A stretch of DNA of 47,645 nucleotides from Eremomyces bilateralis CBS 781.70 (lineage: Eukaryota): NCBI GenBank assembly GCA_010015585.1, contig ML975161.1, one strand, 5' to 3'. Numbering within the stretch: position 1 is the stretch's first letter; every line of letters starts with the position of its first letter. Made by a program: the position numbers and the translations under genes. This document shows positions 2,481-23,604 of the stretch, piece after piece. The notes under the pieces were generated by a model that was not told the origin of the DNA, did no database searches, and worked only from the letters and a program-made list of their open reading frames with translations.

Positions 2481-4678
2481 ATGAAGTCTGAATTTAAAAC
2501 TAACAAGATACAGGTCCAAACGATGCCTCGATTGCCCGGTCTCGTGCAAGAATCAAAAATAATTACAGACATTCGCGATTCTTTAATTGTCCATACATTT
2601 CCCGATACTAACGAAGCGGGCAGACGATCGTCTCGAAAAGAATGCTGGAAGCCGGAAAAACGCCTTGGGCGTGGACGATCTGGGCAGGTACAACTACAAA
2701 GATGCACTACGGGAGGCACACAACAGGATGCTCTACGAGCAGTAAAGATCATCGAAAAGGGATCGAATCAGAATTTCAATAGGGAGTTAGAAACGATAGC
2801 AAAATTCTCTAACTATCGAGTAAGTCGCATCTAGAGAGACCTAGACGCTAGCTAACTAACCTTTATATTAACTTAGTATGAACAGTGGTTTGTAAAATCA
2901 TTTGGATGGTATGAAGATGCGAACTCGATATTCATTACAATGGAATATTGCCGTTACGGCGATCTTCATTCCTACCTTAAGAAGCAACGTCGTCTACCTG
3001 TTCTAGAAGTCCAGCAATTGATATGTCAAGTACTTGAAGGTCTTGATCAAATGCACCAAAATGATTTCACTCATGGGGATCTAAATCCATCAGTAAGCGC
3101 GATCTAGTCAGCAAGCGACGGATCATTTTCTAACATTAGTAGAATATTCTCATTAAGTTGATGCCACCAGAGGAGAGTTGGTGGATTGTGCTTACCGATT
3201 TTGCTATCAGCAAACGAGCGAACGAAGATAATAGCCCTACAACAGCGATTAAAGGCACAGTAGGATTTATAGCGCCGGAATTGCTAGGCTTTCCGAGTCT
3301 TCCTAGACCTAAAGAAACCTCCGGCTTTAGAGCAGCAGATTTATGGGCTCTTGGTGAGATTGCCTTTATAATGCTTACTAGCGAAGCAACGTTCCCATCC
3401 CAGTGGCACCTAGGGCGATACTGTCAAGGACAGCAGAGATTCCCGTCCGATCGACTTTCGCCATTCGCTGGAGACGATGGCATAGATTTCATCAGCAGCC
3501 TCATGGAGATACATCCAGAGAATCGAATAGATACCACCCAATGCCTCGAACATAGCTGGATAAAGCCGCAGCGTGTAAATCTGGAAGAAGAGATTTCTGG
3601 ACTGGGCTTAGGACAAGATAGCTCAAGTTACTCGGCTAGCTTGACAAACGTATCACATCCGGACTGTATTCTAGAAACAGTTCAACGAAGCCCGGCAAAG
3701 TCGTCAGACTTGTACCAAAGAGGTTCAAGGCAGCCCCAACTTGAGCGGATTTGCAGCAATCCATCAACCTCTAGGACTGGCAAGGAATCGTTATTCCTAC
3801 CGGGAGCGGCACCGAAAACGCTCGAGGGGCATACGGGTTACGTCGACGCCATTGCCTTTTCGCCGGATGGCAAGATACTGGCGTCGGCATCGAGGGACCA
3901 TACCGTCAGGCTATGGGACGTCCCGTCGGGAGCGGCGCTAGAGACGCTCGAGTGCCATACAAATGACGTCTACGCCGTGGCCTTCTCCCTAGACGGTAAG
4001 AGGCTGGCGTCGGCATCGGGTGACCATACCGTCAGGCTATGGGACGGCCAGTCGGGAGCGGCACTAAAGATGCTCGGGGGCCATACATATTTCGTCTACG
4101 CCGTGGCCTTCTCGCCGGACGGCAAGGTACTGGCGTCGGCATCAGGGGACGATACTGTCAGACTGTGGAACGGCCAGTGGGGAGCAGCGCTAAAGACGCT
4201 TGCGGGCCATTCAAATGCCGTCGACGCCGTGGTCTTCTCGCCGGACGGTAAGACGCTGGCATCGGCATCGTGGGACCATAGCGTCAGGCTGTGGAACGGC
4301 CAGTCAGGAGCGGCGCTAAAGACGCTCACCGGACATACAAATTTCGTCTACGCCGTGGCCTTCTCGCCGGACGGCAAGACGCTGGCGTCGGCATCGGGGG
4401 ACTACACCGTCAGGCTGTGGGACGCCCGGTCGGGAGCGGCGCTAAAGACGCTTGCGGGCCATTCAAATGCCGTCAACGCCGTGGTCTTCTCGCCGGACGG
4501 CAAGACGCTGGCGTCGGCATCGGGTGACCATACCGTTAGGCTATGGGACGGCCGGTCGGGAGCGGCGCTAAAGACGCTTAAGAGACATACAAATGATGTC
4601 TACGCCGTAGCCTTCTCGCCGGAGGGCAAGACGCTCGCGTCGGCATCGTGGGATAAAACCGTCAGGCTTTGGACATAA
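2481..4678 (+). CDS. Ser/Thr kinase-like domain fused to a 7-repeat WD40 propeller (3 exons)
   Basis: Introns 2820-2876 and 3093-3142 (GTAAG..CTAAC..AG) join the ORFs in frame. Kinase motifs: LGRGRSGQV, RAVKII, RELETIAKFS, MEYC..GDL, HGDLNPSN, DFA, GTVGFIAPE, DLWALG. The C-terminus has 7 x 42-aa GH..WD repeats. Start could be ATG 2481 or 2523. Confidence 0.88.
3802..4675 (+). repeat. Seven tandem 126-bp WD40-coding repeats with high nucleotide identity
   Basis: Unit GAALKTLxGHxxxVxAVAFSPDGKTLASASxDxTVRLW. DNA motifs such as ttctcgccggacggcaag and ggcgtcggcatcg recur every 126 bp. The array is GC-richer than the kinase part. Confidence 0.95.
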
Positions 4679-11049: not shown

Positions 11050-12111
11050 TCAAAGCGCGATACTCTGGTTGCCATGGACAGTTTTCGTCCCTACTTGCTC
11101 TGCGATCTTGCTGTCCTGGTTGTTCCATGTGTTGGATACACCACTTGCTGCCTTGATCATGTCGTCCACCGTGCCTGCCTTCGCTACATCAGCCGGCACT
11201 ATCACCGACAGTAGCTCCTTCGCACACGCTGCTGCCGCTCCCGCCGCGTATGGCTGCCACTTCTTGTTCTTATGCGAATCGGCGTAGTCACAGATACCTC
11301 GGATGACAAGACATGGAAAGCTGTTCATCAGGCCTGCCGCCTCCATCTCAAAACAGAGCACTCCGCCAAATTCCTTACTCACAGTATCCCTCTCCGCAGC
11401 ATTCTTAATGACCTGATTGCCAGATGCAATTGTACCGTAGTAAATCACAAGGTCCTCGTTCGATCGTGGCTGTCGATCCACCTTCTTGTCTTGGCTGCAT
11501 GACTTGCATGTCGGCCCTTCCTCGTGATTGTACGCCGCTTCGAATAGGACGTCCTGTCCGGCGGCCTCGCGTGTGAACTCTGTAAGCCGGCGAAACTTGG
11601 AGACGTGTTCCGAGAGCTTAGTCTTCCGGCGGATTTGGTTGGCTCGCAGTCTGTTAACAGCGCCTAGTAGGAATACCGGTGGGGAATTGAGAAATCCCGT
11701 CCGTTGAAACCCGCTCGGAGTCGACTTCCCAAAGTCGTACTGTATCACTCCGCCGTAGCCTTGATGCGGCTGACTGATAACCACATCTCCCAGCCGGATG
11801 TCCGCTTCAGCACTTGGGACGCCGCCCCCGATGCCGACCATCAGGCCAAACCGTATCGACCTAAATGTTGCTCTCAACTGCGTCGCTACTGCCGCGGCGG
11901 GGTTGTTCCCTATTAGGCCTGCTGGGAGGCAGACGATAACAATATTATGTTCCCCTATGCGCCCGAGCGAGTACAGATTGTTGTCGTGCTCGTCCTGCTC
12001 AAGGTCTTCGTGCTCTTCGTCCAGCATTTCCTGTGCGGCAGCCAGTTCGACCGGCAGCGCGCACACCCATCCTACAGTGTATTCCTCGCGTTGAAGACGA
12101 CGGCACGCCAT
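11050..12111 (-). CDS. Stand-alone PNP_UDP (nucleoside phosphorylase-fold) protein of the fungal NLR-effector type, with a C-terminal N/Q/G tail
   Basis: Intact 353-aa ORF with YTVGWVCALPVELAAA, LMVGIGGGVP, DIRLGDVV, GTIASGN, FEMEAAG and IRGICDYADSHKNKKWQPYAA. Ends VSNTWNNQDSKIAEQVGTKTVHGNQSIAL with no NACHT or NB-ARC attached. Confidence 0.95.
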   Translation of the reverse strand: MACRRLQREEYTVGWVCALPVELAAAQEMLDEEHEDLEQDEHDNNLYSLGRIGEHNIVIVCLPAGLIGNNPAAAVATQLRATFRSIRFGLMVGIGGGVPSAEADIRLGDVVISQPHQGYGGVIQYDFGKSTPSGFQRTGFLNSPPVFLLGAVNRLRANQIRRKTKLSEHVSKFRRLTEFTREAAGQDVLFEAAYNHEEGPTCKSCSQDKKVDRQPRSNEDLVIYYGTIASGNQVIKNAAERDTVSKEFGGVLCFEMEAAGLMNSFPCLVIRGICDYADSHKNKKWQPYAAGAAAACAKELLSVIVPADVAKAGTVDDMIKAASGVSNTWNNQDSKIAEQVGTKTVHGNQSIAL

Positions 12112-12414
12112 TCAGATGGTCGCTGCGGTGCGGTGGGATAGTGGGAGGGAGAAAGCCGCAAGGCTAGAAAGTATACAGGAGCCGAGGAGAGTCGAAGAGG
12201 GTTGCGACTAATACAGGTTGAACACGAGACCAGCAGTAGCGACCAGTCATATATATATCGCCTGCATTCCCCGTCGCCAACATTGTCGCCTGCCTAGCCT
12301 CCCACTCCCTACTATGTACTCCCTAGGCGCTTGCAGCTGGCAGCGGTAGGGATCGTTGTAAAGTAAGAAGTGGGGACTACCAGTCGGGCGCTGTCATTAG
12401 CTATTAATAGAGTG

Positions 12415-12665
12415 CACATCGTACGACCCCGCCTTGCGCTTCTGCGGTTTACCAACTAATACCACATCGCCGAGCCCTTTTATCTACCTCCTCACTTAGA
12501 ATGCCTTCTCCGATGTCTACTATCAAGCCAAACCGGATTGACATGAATGCTGACTTCATCGGACGGCGACTATCGCCGCTGAGCTGGTCTCAGTAAGGCC
12601 CTCAGGTAGACAGGCGATGACGACGTTATGTTGGTTGACATGTCCGAGCGCGTAAATATATGGGA
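12415..12665 (-). pseudogene. Degenerate fragment of a second PNP_UDP gene
   Basis: YALGHVNQHNVVIACLPEGLTETSSAAIVA / frameshift / MKSAFMSIRFGLIVDIGEGILSEEVD..LGDVV parallels YSLGRIGEHNIVIVCLPAG..FRSIRFGLMVGIGGGVPSAEADIRLGDVV of the neighbouring gene. Confidence 0.8.
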
Positions 12666-13054
12666 TTGAATGGGCTGCGAGAAAGCCTGGGATATCTCGA
12701 GGCTTCCACACTTTTAAACTTAGAATAGCTGGCTTGGGGAAACAGGAGGGTCGAACGGCATGGGACCTTACAACGAATGATACGTATTGCATTACCATGC
12801 TTAAGCTGTGTGCTGACTTTGCTCTTTGAATTGCTGCGTCGTCAAGAAATTCAGAATAGATAGAGAAACATAGAAAAGCTAAAGAAGGTGACGATTCATC
12901 ACGTGCCATCTCCTGGTTGAGGTTGGCAGATGACCTGGCCTTGCGGACTGCATTTGGCGCCGATAATGGTCTGTCCTTAAACCTCAGTCAATCTCTCAAG
13001 ACACACAGCTCGTAGCTATGATTTTGTTGTGATACGTGGCCTATCTTCCTAGCG

Positions 13055-16000
13055 ATGTACGCTTCCCCAGATCACCAGCCGGTCAGGTTCACCAATGAAG
13101 GAGGAGGGGTTGGAGTCCAGGCCGGTCAGAACATCGTGTATAGGGACTTCAACGTGCAGTAAGTTCGGTCTACTAGTTATCTCTCTTTGAGCTTACTGAC
13201 ACGGCGCGATTATCTATGGCAGGACTACACACGATCATAATCCGCTAGACTCCCTCCCTTACGCGCCCAACGCTGCTTTCAACGCACTAGAGAAAGGAGA
13301 CGACCCTCTCTGCATCCGTGGCACTCGAGTCGACGTCCTTAACGATATCAGGAAATGGATCGATGGAGAAGACAAGCGGCATATCTTCTGGCTGAGTGGC
13401 TGGGCAGGCACCGGAAAGTCCACAATAGCACGGACAGTTGCACGGAAATACTATGGCAAAAGTAGACTAGTCGCAAGCTACTTCTTCTCAAAAGGTGGCG
13501 GCGACACTGGCAATGCGACAAAGTTCGTTGGTACAATCGCAAGGCAACTGGCGGGCAAATTACCCGAGTTCGAGAGACTGCTCCGGAAAGCCCTGTCGAA
13601 GGACAAAGACATTGTCCATCGCGTCCTAAAAGATCAATGGCAGGAACTCATTATTACACCGCTAGCGCAACTTCCGGTCGACTCGCTCCCGTCGCCACTA
13701 ATAGTGGTTGATGCGCTAGACGAGTGCGATACTGAGAGCAGTATTAGACAAGTGCTCCAGCTTCTGGCCGACACAAGAAATCAAAACCGACAACTGCTTC
13801 GGATTTTGATTACAAGCAGACCTGAAGTACCGATCCGGGATGAATTCTCGCGATTCCTACCGGGTGAACACCAACTCATATTACAGGATATATCGAAGTT
13901 TATCGTCGACCAAGATATTTCGATTTTCCTAAAGCATAACCTCGCGCAAATTAGCCCAGAAGACGAGATAGTCGCGCAGCTTGTCCGAAAAGCTGCGGGC
14001 CTATTTATCTGGGCTGCAACCGCCTGTCGATTCATCTGCGAAGGGTCATCCCCTGAGAAAAGACTCCGCATAATTCTCGGAAGCACCGGCTCTACTATTA
14101 CCTCGAACGATCATGTTGATGGGATCCATGTCACTTTGTTACAAAACATCATCAGAAGCCTAATTTGGAAGGCAAGTAGCCTTTGGTTTTGGACTGCAAT
14201 TTTCTGTGGCTTCGTTCGCGAAGGACTAATTGTTAAGCAATGGCTACAAACACTTGTTATGAGCAATACCACGCCAGAAGATCATCTCGACGCGATCTAC
14301 TTGACTGTTCTCAACAGCTCTCTCCACTCAAGGTTTTCTCCACAGGACATCACCGACTTCCATGGCACGGTAAGAGACGTGCTGGGAAGCATGGTCACCC
14401 TTTTCTCCTTCCTTTCGGTCAAATCATTGAGTATCTTACTCTTGAAACCGGAGAAAGACCTTACCTGGACGATGAAAGATCTTCATGCTATTCTAGATTT
14501 TCCAAAGGACAATGCTTCAGCTCTTCGTCTCCATCATCCGTCGTTCCGGGACTTTCTTCTTAACAGAGAAAGGTGTCGCGACTCGTACTTCTTGGTAGAC
14601 GAGAAACAGGCACATCAGATGCTAGCTAACAATTGTATACGGCTTTTGTCGACATATCTGAAGCAGGATGTCTGCAAAGTGAACTCTCCAGGTATGCTTA
14701 CGGCCGGGGTTGAGAGAAATCAAGTAGACCAGTGTCTTCCGCCAGAGGTCCAGTATGCATGCCACTACTGGATCCAACATCTTCAGAAGAGCGGTGCTCA
14801 GCTTCGCGACAATGACAAAGTACACCGTTTCCTACAGGAGCATCTTCTCAACTGGCTGGAAGCGCTAAGCTGGATGCGGAAAGTCTCTGAAGGGATTAAT
14901 GCTATTAATTCTTTACAATCAATTGCTCTGGTACTTATGCCTTATCATTATAGAAATACGTCCGCTAAAATGCTGTTTAGACCAGCGACTGTCCTAGGCT
15001 ATACGCGTTTATCTATGATATAAAGCGATTCGCTCTATATCACAGGTCAGCAATCGAGCAAGCTCCCCTCCAAATATATTACTGTGCACTTGTGTTTNNN
15101 NNNNNNNNNNNNNNNNNNNNNNNNNNNNNNNNNNNNNNNNNNNNNNNNNNNNNNNNNNNNNNNNNNNNNNNNNNNNNNNNNNNNNNNNNNNNNNNNNNNN
15201 NNNNNNNNNNNNNNNNNNNNNNNNNNNNNNNNNNNNNNNNNNNNNNNNNNNNNNNNNNNNNNNNNNNNNNNNNNNNNNNNNNNNNNNNNNNNNNNNNNNN
15301 NNNNNNNNNNNNNNNNNNNNNNNNNNNNNNNNNNNNNNNNNNNNNNNNNNNNNNNNNNNNNNNNNNNNNNNNNNNNNNNNNNNNNNNNNNNNNNNNNNNN
15401 NNNNNNNNNNNNNNNNNNNNNNNNNNNNNNNNNNNNNNNNNNNNNNNNNNNNNNNNNNNNNNNNNNNNNNNNNNNNNNNNNNNNNNNNNNNNNNNNNNNN
15501 NNNNNNNNNNNNNNNNNNNNNNNNNNNNNNNNNNNNNNNNNNNNNNNNNNNNNNNNNNNNNNNNNNNNNNNNNNNNNNNNNNNNNNNNNNNNNNNNNNNN
15601 NNNNNNNNNNNNNNNNNNNNNNNNNNNNNNNNNNNNNNNNNNNNNNNNNNNNNNNNNNNNNNNNNNNNNNNNNNNNNNNNNNNNNNNNNNNNNNNNNNNN
15701 NNNNNNNNNNNNNNNNNNNNNNNNNNNNNNNNNNNNNNNNNNNNNNNNNNNNNNNNNNNNNNNNNNNNNNNNNNNNNNNNNNNNNNNNNNNNNNNNNNNN
15801 NNNNNNNNNNNNNNNNNNNNNNNNNNNNNNNNNNNNNNNNNNNNNNNNNNNNNNNNNNNNNNNNNNNNNNNNNNNNNNNNNNNNNNNNNNNNNNNNNNNN
15901 NNNNNNNNNNNNNNNNNNNNNNNNNNNNNNNNNNNNNNNNNNNNNNNNNNNNNNNNNNNNNNCTCTCTTTTTCTGACGATAGCACTTCTCTGCGAACAAA

Positions 16001-16226
16001 CAGGGGGTCACTTCCTATTTCATTATCTCTCCCTGGCGATACACCTACTCTCCAACCACAAGGTCCACCTCTTATCTTTGTTAACGACGAATGGGTTTGT
16101 CACAATACCGAGCGTATTCTTTGGCTTCCTCATGAATATCGATTAGCCAAAGTTGCGGTCTATGGAGGCGTTGTTGCTCTCGGCTGCAGATCTGGAAGAG
16201 TTACAATCATGGTACTCGCTTTCTAA
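13055..16226 (+). CDS. HET-E-like NLR: short N-terminal motif + NACHT + (probably WD40) repeat domain; repeat region lies in the assembly gap
   Basis: Exon 1 13055-13158, introns 13159-13222 and 14931-14980. Motifs: LPYAPNAAFN..CIRGTRVDVL, Walker A FWLSGWAGTGKSTIARTVA, Walker B IVVDALDEC, ITSRPE, GLFIWA, LRLHHPSFRDFL, YACHYWIQHL, WLEALS, APLQIYYCALVF. The post-gap tail ILWLPHEYR..VALGCRSGRV is typical of NACHT-WD proteins. Confidence 0.9.
15098..15962. other. Assembly gap (N run) inside the NLR repeat domain
   Basis: 865 N between the ALVF helix and the C-terminal LWLP tail. Confidence 0.99.
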
Positions 16227-19792: not shown

Positions 19793-21020
19793 CTATCCGA
19801 AGAAGTTTCCATTGGCGATGTCTCTAACCTCAGCAATCTTGTTCAGGGCCGTCAGATCCCCCGAGCCCAGCCGCGTGTCAGCACCAGCCAACCAGTCTAT
19901 GTCGGCGGATTCACCGAGGGTGGGAAGCTCATTCACAGAGGCGAACCCTTCGGTGACCCCACTGGAGGCAGCAGACTCGTTGACATAGGAGTACCCGTCC
20001 AGGGGAGTGGCAGTGAGCGCGCCAAGCGGAGCAGACCCACTGGGTCCGGGATACCCGTAGATCCCAGGAAACATGGTAGCGCTCGAAATANNNNNNNNNN
20101 NNNNNNNNNNNNNNNNNNNNNNNNNNNNNNNNNNNNNNNNNNNNNNNNNNNNNNNNNNNNNNNNNNNNNNNNNNNNNNNNNNNNNNNNNNNNNNNAGCAG
20201 ACCCACTGGGTCCGGGATACCCGTAGATCCCAGGAAACATGGTAGCGCTCGAAATATCGTCGATGTTGCTGAATCCGTTGATACCAGCGTCGGTGAACCC
20301 ACTGGAGGTAGCAGACTGGTTGACATAGGAGTACCCGTCCAGGGGAGTGGCAGTGAGCGTGCCAAGCGGAGCAAACCCACCGGGGCCGGGATACCCGTAG
20401 ATCCCAGGAAACATGGTAGCGCCCGAAATATCGTTGACGTTACCGAATTCGTTGATACCAGCGTCGGTGAACGCAAGGTTTATGGGCGGGGAGCCAAGAT
20501 AGTTAGACTGGGCAGGCAGTGTAGCGTTCAGACCGCTAGAAAGTCCACCGGAACCATCGAGGAACCGGAACACATCACCCGATCCGTTGTTGTAAGTGTC
20601 CGCATCACGAGCCGTGATAGCCTCGTCGAACGGGGCAGGGGTCTGTAGTACAAGGCTGCCAGTGGATACGGACGCAGACTCTGCGGTTCGGTGAACTTTC
20701 ATGTGCCGTTTCAGCCCGTCCTTCCGTGGAAAAGGGCGCCCGGGGCCAGAAACATGTCGAGCGCATCCAAAGACCGGACACCAAAATTGCTGTGTCCGCT
20801 CGTGGATTGAGTTGATGTGACGCTGTCGGTCATGCTCGTGGGCGAAGGTCTTGTGGCACCCTTGCCAATTGCAAGGGAACTTCGTGGGCCTAGCGTCCTT
20901 CTCGATGCGGCTAGAGGACGTGTCATTGGTGTAACTGGTCCGAGAAGGAGCGGTGGCTTACCTGTGCCCTTGCTTAGGCAGGGGGAGCCGGGGAGATTGG
21001 GTGATGTGAGAAGAGGCATA
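19793..21020 (-). CDS. C2H2 zinc-finger protein with a C-terminal 58-aa tandem-repeat region (5' end uncertain, gap inside)
   Basis: After an intron (~20912-20961): FPCNWQGCHKTFAHEHDRQRHINSIH and FWCPVFGC..FPRKDGLKRHMKVH, then at least 3 copies of a 174-bp repeat. Stop at 19793-19795. Confidence 0.7.
19930..20471 (-). repeat. 174-bp coding tandem repeat (at least 3 copies, N gap 20091-20196)
   Basis: gatacccgtagatcccaggaaacatggtagc recurs near 20050, 20216 and 20390. Unit ~FTDAGINEFGNVNDISGATMFPGIYGYPGPGGFAPLGTLTATPLDGYSYVNQSATSSG. Confidence 0.9.
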
Positions 21021-22135: not shown

Positions 22136-23604
22136 CCTCACCGGACTGCTCAAGTGTGACCAATGCTTAAAAACCTTTCCTACGAAGGGGAAATTCAGGT
22201 TCGAAAATATCGCCATTATCTCGAGAGGCACTCGCTAATTGCTTCCCAGCCGCCATTATAATAAACATACAAAACCCCATCGGTGCAACGACTGTGGGAG
22301 AGGATTTGGACTCAATGGTGATCTTAAGCGGCATGCCAAAATACATCAACTCGTCAACTTTCCCTTCCACTGCAATGTTTCCGGATGCCGGTTCAAAGGG
22401 GCTACGAGAAAGGATAATCTGCGAAGACACATTCGTGCCCGCCATAGACTTAATGAGTTCCACGGGGAAAAGATACAGCAAGAGGACATCGAACCACTTT
22501 GCAACCAGGCACAATTGGAGGTTAAGGAACTGATCGGCGACTCTACTGTGCCCGTAGCCGTGCAATCCGGGAACGATATAGTACTGCGCTCGCTTATCGA
22601 TCTCGGGTTCGACCTTACGACAAGATTCGATCACGGCAGAACGGCACTTCACATTGCCGCAGTCAAAGGCAGTGATGTTGCCGTACGAATACTCCTTAAT
22701 GCCCGGGCCAACACCGAAGCTAGAGACGATCTAGACAGAACCGCACTGCATGAAGCAGCATATCAAGGACATCATAACGTTGTGGATCTACTTCTGCAGG
22801 CAGGAGCAGGGATTCATCATAGGGATCACAGAGAGGACACCGCGCTCCATCTCTCTGCTGCCAGCGGTCATAGTCTTGTTACAAGGTCTCTTCTGCAGAA
22901 GGGAGCTAAACCAGATGCACAGTCACGGAGAGGAGAAACGGCACTATACCGAGCGATCCAGAATGGACACGAAGATGTTTCCAATCTACTGCTAGATCAT
23001 GGGGCATCCCCCACAATTGTGTCAAATGCGTCGCGGGCGGCACTGTACTTTGCGTGCAAGGCCGGAAGCGAGAAATTACTTGAACGGCTGCTTCGAGAAA
23101 CGCCGGATGGACCAAGCATGGCTCGCAAACAGAGGTTCCTCGTTCGTGCAGTCAGGCATGGCAATGAAGATGCGACAAGGGTGCTTCTCAAAGTAGGGGC
23201 GAATGTTAATTTGAAAGGACATCAAACCGGCTGTACTCCGCTCGAGTGGGCGGCGATGAGAGGAAATGAATCCATGATGCGACTGCTTCTTGAAAATGGA
23301 CCAACCGTCAAAGGCCTCACCGGCGCACTTCAATGGGCCGTAGTACGGGGTAATGAGAAGGTGATACGTCCACTTCTCGAAAGCGGGGCAGACGTGAACG
23401 AGGCGGACAAATGGGGCAGGACAGCGCTTCATACCGCTTCTAATCGCGGCCATACAGACATCATCCGTTTACTTCTTACGAGCGGGGCTGACGCAAACCG
23501 AGCTGACAACGGGGGGCCAAACACCGCTCTACCAAGCTTCTAAAGACGGCTATACAGACATTGTCAGTTTACTCCTCGAGAGCGAGGCAGATGTTGTGCG
23601 ATAA
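22136..23604 (+). CDS. Triple C2H2 zinc finger + ankyrin-repeat protein (5' exons uncertain; +1 frameshift in last repeat)
   Basis: LKCDQCLKTF..(intron 22199-22249)..RHYNKH, HRCNDCGRGF..DLKRHAKIH, FHCNVSGC..RKDNLRRHIRARH, then about 10 ANK repeats (GRTALHIAA, RTALHEAA, GETALYRA, GCTPLEWAA). The ORF stops at 23543, while a shifted frame continues QTPLYQASKDGYTDIVSLLLE to 23604. Confidence 0.85.

Follow-up and report, generated by a model that had tools for sequence, protein, structure and literature searches.

In the catalogue of Wojciechowski et al. (2022, PLoS Comput Biol; PMC9815663), the motif NLR39 is listed among those found at the heads of fungal NOD-like receptors (NLRs) and is annotated PP. 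According to Table 1 of that paper, NLR39 is 24 amino acids (aa) long and occurs in 20 NLRs, with 0.80 of its instances ArchCandy-positive, 0 genomic neighbours, 2 effector hits and 1 strain; it occupies residues 12-35 in NACHT(-WD) NLRs of Dothideomycetes, Eurotiomycetes and Leotiomycetes. PUASM, another motif described in the same paper, follows the pattern FxGxGxQxxGxGxF, carries GND in its PNP version and ARD in its NLR version, and has been shown experimentally (PUASM1) to form prions. Here we compare such systems with a locus of Eremomyces bilateralis CBS 781.70, located in a 47,645-nucleotide (nt) stretch of contig ML975161.1 (the whole stretch is hereafter called the window), in which the gene of a PNP_UDP_1 protein (hereafter PNP) with a short C-terminal tail lies divergent to an NLR gene with a corresponding motif at its N-terminus. 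The locus probably encodes a two-gene fungal NLR/effector cell-death module wired by an NLR39-class motif of the amyloid-signalling type, and, judged by homology, the motif pair is of this known class, not a new kind of system. The NLR gene starts at 13055 on the plus strand, 944 bases from the PNP start codon, and the features of the locus are as follows.

11050..12111, minus strand: PNP_UDP_1 (nucleosidase-type) effector gene, an open reading frame (ORF) of 353 aa, stop included
11053..11139, minus strand: effector-side motif, residues 325-353, the last 29 of the PNP_UDP_1 protein
12419..12657, minus strand: decayed second PNP_UDP gene, of which residues ~46-124 are left, broken by a frameshift and a stop (tblastn)
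13055..13158, plus strand: NLR exon 1 of 35 codons; codon 35 takes its final base from the start of exon 2
13088-13158, plus strand: NLR-side motif FTNEGGGVGVQAGQNIVYRDFNVQ, NLR residues 12-35
13159..13222, plus strand: intron 1, 64 nt, phase 2, GTAAGT...CAG, immediately 3' of the motif
13223..14930, plus strand: NLR exon 2, NACHT-type nucleotide-binding domain, 3' end predicted from sequence alone
14931-14980, plus strand: intron 2, GTACTT...TTTAG, predicted in the same way
14981..16226, plus strand: predicted last part of the NLR, in the frame that follows this splice, with the stop at 16226

The link to NLR39 comes from two rows in the supplement of PMC9815663. In its S1 Table, the Alternaria alternata NLR OWY43226.1 is entered as 'NLR39, 12-35'; this protein (P0142) was matched by our profile built from both sides of the motif (two-sided profile) with E=1.1e-10, and it aligns gap-free to residues 12-35 of the window NLR, with 10/24 residues in common. 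In its S6 Table, the NLR39 motif of XP_018036993.1 has as its partner residues 236-257 of XP_018036994.1, a Paraphaeosphaeria HeLo protein (P0154) that ends in TWNNRNSKIGEQVGTKNVYGNQNITV, which is the same W-type tail as that of the window PNP. Because of these two rows, the motif family must be regarded as already catalogued, and the suggestion of an earlier note on this DNA that the motif might represent an undescribed family is withdrawn, the described class having been reached indirectly, via OWY43226.1 and XP_018036994.1. The window NLR resembles the NLR39 members in its in-register homology and in having a motif of ~24 aa close to residue 12, in a NACHT NLR whose N-terminus is short, and 7 of the 12 NLR39 rows compared (PMC9815663) likewise start at residue 12. 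A motif at the effector C-terminus, as recorded for NLR39, is present in XP_018036994.1. No other relevant paper was returned by a full-text literature search for 'NLR39'. The accessions RYN64081, KAF1809926, XP_033531557, CAN9321847, KAF1960185, OAG06629, OAG20740 and XP_018386161 are absent from those supplementary tables of PMC9815663 that were searched, which is weak evidence. As published, NLR39 has a HeLo protein as its sole partner and 0 genomic neighbours (PMC9815663), whereas in the window the partner is a PNP_UDP_1 protein and the two genes are adjacent and divergent. The PNP_UDP link, the gene adjacency, a dedicated motif exon and an asymmetry between effector and NLR versions of the motif appear to be new.

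On the effector side, the ORF at 11050..12111 (minus strand) terminates in ...GVSNTWNNQDSKIAEQVGTKTVHGNQSIAL, and its segment 11053-11139 codes for VSNTWNNQDSKIAEQVGTKTVHGNQSIAL; the ORF translation thus confirms the 29-residue tail without proline that had been described earlier. The conserved 23-residue effector core, WNNQDSKIAEQVGTKTVHGNQSI, lies at 11059-11127 on the same strand. The Pfam model PNP_UDP_1 (PF01048) matches residues 13-300 (E=1.2e-11), and therefore the tail lies outside the domain. In an AlphaFold2 model computed with an alignment of homologues, residues 1-322 are folded, while residues 323-353 have a predicted local distance difference test (pLDDT) score <50 and no secondary structure, so the tail is predicted to be a disordered appendage. 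The database model P0002 is 100% identical to the window PNP, begins at Met29 and retains the tail. As well, the whole PNP gene including the tail is spanned with zero differences by one 2760-letter contig of run X1, a public run that is not on record as RNA and whose RNA nature is a guess.

The closest solved relatives of the window PNP are methylthioadenosine/S-adenosylhomocysteine (MTA/SAH) nucleosidases, with whose segments VEMEGAA and IRAMSDNAN the window segments FEMEAAG and IRGICDYAD align, and both window motifs are invariant across 20 homologues. As in MtnN, the E-M-E and S/C-D residues are presumably catalytic. The window PNP has the features of an immune-type PNP_UDP_1 nucleosidase, namely the PNP_UDP_1 fold together with the E-M-E and S/C-D motifs. 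Its homology to further immune PNP domains makes it a probable ATP/adenosine-nucleotide nucleosidase; the PNP domain of a fungal NLR has been demonstrated to be an ATP nucleosidase, according to a preprint (bioRxiv 10.1101/2023.01.24.525353).

On the receptor side, exon 1 translates as MYASPDHQPVRFTNEGGGVGVQAGQNIVYRDFNVQ, and the motif has this 35-codon exon to itself. The VQAG sequence reported earlier for the NLR is indeed there, in exon 1 (13055-13158), and is followed by the NACHT/NPHP3_N exon: the translation of 13200-15020 matches the Pfam models NPHP3_N (E=3.7e-31) and NACHT (E=1.8e-5). In run X1, two contigs have 13158 joined to 13223 ('skips 64, GT..AG'), exactly at the predicted splice site, and the splice of the motif exon to exon 2 is thus seen in this run. 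The window NLR motif aligns gap-free to 12 other NLR N-termini, including OWY43226.1.

The two motifs fall into one register. When peptides from both sides, first 14 and later 26, were aligned with MAFFT, the motif core was gap-free, a single-residue gap occurring in 2/26 peptides; all 26 have N3, Q11 and V17, G19 is >=90% conserved, and the effector and NLR sides alike tend to have glycine at core positions 9, 13 and 19. Of 20000 composition-preserving shuffles, 6 reach the BLOSUM62 score that the window pair has in register, and the corresponding numbers of shuffles (of 20000) are 3, 0 and 19 for the pairs in the related loci L001, L003 and L005, respectively. The cores are rich in glycine, asparagine and glutamine taken together, and proline is absent from 20/20 effector cores. 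The register, the shuffles and the conservation of the tail bear out the earlier proposal that effector tail and NLR head form a matching pair, and the invariant Q11 agrees with the idea of a core centred on glutamine.

Metagenome contigs scanned with the tail alignment gave five loci (L001-L005), three of which have enough flanking sequence to be compared with the window. In all three (L001, L003 and L005), a divergent NACHT gene adjoins the effector gene, as in the window, and a 35-codon first NLR exon bears the motif and ends at an identically placed intron. The arrangement general to fungal NLR-associated amyloid signalling motifs, in which adjacent genes carry the motif at the C-terminus of one product and at the N-terminus of the other, is thus found in the window, L001, L003 and L005. 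The effector is a PNP_UDP protein in the window, L001 and L002, and a HeLo protein in L003, L004 and L005, where the HeLo tail is encoded by a separate last exon. Moreover, the NLR motif begins at residue 12 in the window NLR and in all 11 NLR sequences that start with Met.

A total of 36 distinct cores of 22 or 23 residues were counted, 20 from the effector side and 16 from the NLR side. The effector-type (W-type) consensus is W-N-N-x-[ND]-S-K-I-G-E-Q-V-G-T-K-T-V-x-G-N-Q-x-I, while the NLR-type (F-type) consensus is F-[TN]-N-[ED]-G-G-[RK]-[IV]-[GA]-[IV]-Q-A-x-x-Y-x-V-x-G-[DN]-x-I-V. Among the best 120 PNP homologues, the W-type tail is present in nine (the window protein counted), one (P0064) has an NLR-type tail, which matches the NLR-head profile with E=7.7e-9, 11 have a different tail rich in Q, G and N, and most of the others end where the tail would start. 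A homologue search confined to the tail region returned the window protein only and was uninformative. In a collection of 1.84 billion representatives, the two-sided profile matched 18 proteins at E<=1e-3, comprising 12 NLR heads, three effector tails, one repeat peptide protein and two long proteins that were matched in many short stretches; 15 of the 18 are family members. In a collection of 5.8 billion, where the alignment used for the search had a first row of 44 aa, 34 proteins were matched, namely 20 PNP, 11 NLR and three HeLo proteins, including named proteins from Alternaria, Eremomyces, Byssothecium and Paraphaeosphaeria. The tail is thus conserved, as the nine of the best 120 homologues and the further PNP and HeLo proteins show.

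The same W-type tail is carried by the HeLo pore-forming proteins P0149, P0150 and P0154 and by those in the loci L003, L004 and L005. Since it is attached both to PNP_UDP and to the unrelated HeLo domain, the tail must be a swappable module. In addition, the PNP proteins P0064 and P0158 have an NLR-type (F-type) motif at their C-terminus, and a cluster mate, P0139 (410 aa), runs on into a Walker-A containing region and is a fused PNP-NLR form. The different tail of the 11 homologues mentioned above (P0004, P0007, P0008, P0010, P0013, P0016, P0017, P0027, P0030, P0041 and P0043) reads FQNYGxVxGKNVLQGQTxYGDSNTLNF and occurs in species including Kalmusia, a Phaeosphaeriaceae species and Periconia; it may be another signalling motif. 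A protein of this tail group, PVI01693.1, is absent from those supplementary tables of PMC9815663 that were searched. Further C-terminal tails rich in G, Q and N are present in the PNP homologues P0021, P0044, P0052 and P0080, those of P0021 and P0044 being HRAM-like in appearance, and the clade of the window PNP seems to swap tails freely. The repeat peptide protein, P0137 (138 aa; profile E=6e-4), has three FNN[LY]GSQIG[VQ]Q units with KKR sites between them; it looks like the precursor of processed repeat peptides and is probably unrelated to the motif family.

Compared with PUASM, the window pair has the same effector domain and NLR type; its PNP end has V-x-G-N-[QD] and then a hydrophobic pattern, and its NLR has '..RD'. 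It differs in the spacing from the aromatic residue to Q, which is 10 residues here and 6 in the published PUASM peptide (PMC9815663). A PUASM motif with insertions or deletions was considered for the similar C-terminal ends; the pattern FxGxGxQxxGxGxF had 0 matches in all proteins and loci collected, and PUASM membership was rejected because this defining pattern fails. A second motif with PNP_UDP as its only effector, PF01048_015, joins the PNP_UDP C-terminus to NLR residues ~9-24 (PMC9815663), is probably the 'PUASM 2' of PMC12261475, and is similar to the window in pairing a PNP_UDP C-terminus with an NLR N-terminus. None of the accessions of our family is among the 15 PF01048_015 pairs listed in PMC9815663, so that by accessions, not by sequences, identity of the window motif with PF01048_015 is unlikely. 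With respect to the Pfam models HET-s (PF11558), Ses_B (PF17046, the Pfam model of PP according to PMC12261475) and NACHT_sigma (PF17106, same source), 0 matches at E<=10 were obtained with 26 peptides and the full proteins, although very weak matches may be lost through the HMMER filters; this is the comparison with HET-s, PP and sigma profiles that the earlier note had proposed. Its suggestion that the motif may be a family other than PUASM and sigma held for PUASM by the pattern, and for sigma as judged by the Pfam model only. From their accession prefixes, we take the PF01048_015 pairs to come from Fusarium, Verticillium and Torrubiella.

The PP/RHIM core is G-phi-Q-phi-G, the RHIM version being [IV]-Q-[IVLC]-G and the PP version being flanked by N (PMC7885112); a pseudo-palindrome about Q, with conserved N and G beside it, also belongs to this description. 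Similar to PP (HELLP/PNT1) and RHIM, our family has a central Q with glycines two residues to either side in many members, and similar to PP, it serves an effector C-terminus and an NLR N-terminus; unlike PP, it has K rather than N in the flanks, in addition to the missing Ses_B match. The window NLR carries GVQAG. The G-phi-Q-phi-G core is found in only 3/36 cores (3/16 NLR-type, 0/20 effector-type), and therefore the window GVQAG is not typical; the strict RHIM core occurs in 0/36 distinct cores, and a Pfam RHIM model had no match at E<=10 in the 26 peptides or the full proteins. The RHIM-like (V/I)Q(V/I)G core that had been proposed for the motif is thus peculiar to the window. In the effector type, a pseudo-palindrome centred on Q, K-I-G-E-Q-V-G-T-K, is flanked by K and not by N, whereas the NLR type is not palindromic; around Q, the effector cores have G at -2 in 14/20, G at +2 in 17/20, K at -4 in 19/20 and K at +4 in 17/20.

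The HRAM rules ask for N/Q/H at position 3, hydrophobic residues at 5, 8, 10, 16 and 18, R/K at 15, G at 19 and two effector repeats (PMC4518210). As in HRAM/HET-s with NWD2 (PMC4518210), a HeLo effector can stand next to an NLR, with a unit of ~21 residues, and N3, a hydrophobic residue at 8 (on the NLR side also at 10), G19 and N/D20 are shared. The differences are that positions 5, 16 and 18 are not hydrophobic, that a conserved V stands at 17, that R/K15 is found on the effector side only, that the motif stands once in the effector, not twice, and that the HET-s model gave no match; overall, the motif does not conform to HRAM.

We propose that, upon activation, the NACHT receptor would oligomerise and cluster its N-terminal motifs (residues 12-35), and that the clustered motifs would adopt a cross-beta (beta-arch) fold. 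This fold would then serve as template for the disordered motif at the C-terminus of the PNP_UDP_1 protein, the product of a separate gene, and the templated enzyme would become clustered and switched on. Since the architecture is as in proven fungal amyloid signalosomes, we infer cross-beta templating nucleated by the NLR and activation of the enzyme; amyloid formation and templating between unlike versions of the motif are likewise put forward by analogy.

Several results weigh against this proposal. BLASTP with the two window peptides gave no match, and the two have 4/23 core residues in common, the least of the four cognate pairs, which share 4-8/23. With a profile of the PNP tails only, the NLR of L001 ranked just 12th of 2420 ORFs (E=5.7) and the window NLR fell outside the top 30 of the same 2420, while a profile of four NLR heads found the PNP tails at E=1.4-22, which is not significant, albeit in one and the same register every time. 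Between the effector and NLR consensus sequences there are systematic differences, and no pair-specific co-variation was seen, cognate pairs being no more alike than non-cognate ones. Proline is present in two NLR-type cores. The window NLR deviates at near-invariant sites, with R for G19, N for Y15 and G for R/K7, and, having lost these residues, the window copy may be weakened. Besides, the NLR39 assignment is made by homology to a catalogued member, not by a profile score, and Table 1 of PMC9815663 lists no experiment for NLR39.

Part of these results would suit a non-amyloid docking pair, in which NLR head and effector tail bind one-to-one, for instance by beta-strand pairing, without a self-propagating polymer. 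The systematic difference between the two consensus sequences is what a heterotypic interface would show, one-sided profiles fail to detect the other side significantly, and no experimental amyloid evidence for NLR39 is listed in PMC9815663. We nevertheless consider docking quite unlikely: the motif is rich in G, N and Q with glycines fixed at 9, 13 and 19 on both sides and no proline in 20/20 effector cores, 80% of the NLR39 instances pass ArchCandy (PMC9815663), the architecture of a HeLo C-terminal motif plus an NLR N-terminal motif matches that of proven amyloid systems (PMC4518210), and the NLR-type motif on P0064 and P0158 indicates that homotypic pairing also occurs. If amyloid is involved, the motif could be a true PP/RHIM member with the same fold, cross-seeding with PP motifs of the HELLP/PNT1 type and forming no separate class. 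PMC9815663 annotates NLR39 'PP' and describes its G-hydrophobic-Q-hydrophobic-G pattern as PP-resembling; GVQAG in the window NLR and the effector pseudo-palindrome would be in line with this. This membership is unlikely, however, given how rare the core is in the family (3/16 NLR-type, 0/20 effector-type; strict RHIM 0/36), flanks of K and not of N as for PP (PMC7885112), the lack of a Ses_B match, and a spacing N3...G19-[ND]20 with hydrophobic residues at 8 and 10 that fits the HRAM template about equally well (PMC4518210). Conversely, that NLR39 is an independent amyloid-signalling family and not a PP variant, with W-type effectors versus F-type receptors and heterotypic templating on an N3/Q11/V17/G19 scaffold, is an idea we advance tentatively and hold to be somewhat doubtful.

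The family may also be real and yet the window pair a decaying relic, the NLR head having lost key residues and no longer signalling to the PNP. The substitutions at G19 (R), Y15 (N) and R/K7 (G), the closest relative P0135 with V at 19 and a truncated model of 193 aa, the broken second PNP gene between the PNP and NLR genes and the low similarity of the window pair (4/23) all point that way. We give this explanation a low probability, as long reading frames are open in both genes, the catalytic motifs of the PNP are intact and invariant, the exon 1-exon 2 splice of the NLR and the whole PNP gene are represented in run X1 contigs, and the in-register similarity of the pair lies above all but 6/20000 shuffles. 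Chance resemblance, with the tail as a lineage-specific disordered PNP extension unrelated to the NLR head, would account for the empty BLASTP result and the 4/23 shared residues. It is highly improbable and, because of the recurrent pairing of tail and NLR, effectively refuted: in 3/3 loci with enough flank the tail is paired with an NLR motif at residue 12, the same tail occurs on the unrelated HeLo domain, the published NLR39 profile derived from NLR heads independently matched a HeLo tail (PMC9815663), and N, Q and V are invariant in the MAFFT register. A cell-death module wired by an NLR39-class motif thus remains the reading we prefer.

Other observations concern the surroundings of the gene pair. 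The remnant at 12419-12657 has the intact PNP gene on one side and the NLR on the other; its identity (tblastn) is 76%/57% to P0025 and 70%/55% to P0039, the lineage of the PNP that adjoins the NLR in L001, and a lower 48%/43% to the intact PNP of the window. The broken gene suggests turnover at the locus. In the NLR gene, positions 15098-15962 are masked as N and cover most of the C-terminal repeat region, so the repeat domain is unreadable, and the translation of 15966-16223 had no Pfam match; a second run of N in the window is at 20091-20195. The contigs of run X1 leave 12265-13083 uncovered, a gap from which no conclusion is drawn. Over 13112-13348, one of the two spliced X1 contigs is identical to the window and the other has 8 differences; the latter is therefore taken to be an allele or close paralogue within run X1. 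The Eremomyces bilateralis model P0135, 91% identical to the window NLR exon 1 and just 193 aa long, ends in sequence that looks out of frame, indicating a broken gene or a poor gene model. Elsewhere in the window, a 511-aa ORF with ~7 WD40 repeats (3143-4675, plus strand) and a 434-aa ankyrin-repeat ORF (22239-23540, plus strand) may be the repeat domains of further NLR-like genes.

For prion-like signal transduction in innate immunity, the best model is the fungal NLR/effector pair linked through an amyloid motif, a system related to the necroptosis signalling of animals. With the window pair, NLR39, which has so far been known in silico only and is barely characterised, gains a second, enzymatic effector (a PNP_UDP nucleosidase), a conserved adjacency of the two genes, a dedicated motif exon and an asymmetry between effector and receptor. 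It also provides a defined peptide pair with which to ask whether two unlike sequences can template each other, and how a cross-beta tail switches on a soluble enzyme rather than a pore-former. If NLR39 were indeed an independent, asymmetric family, one receptor type could fire either a membrane-attacking or a nucleotide-destroying effector.

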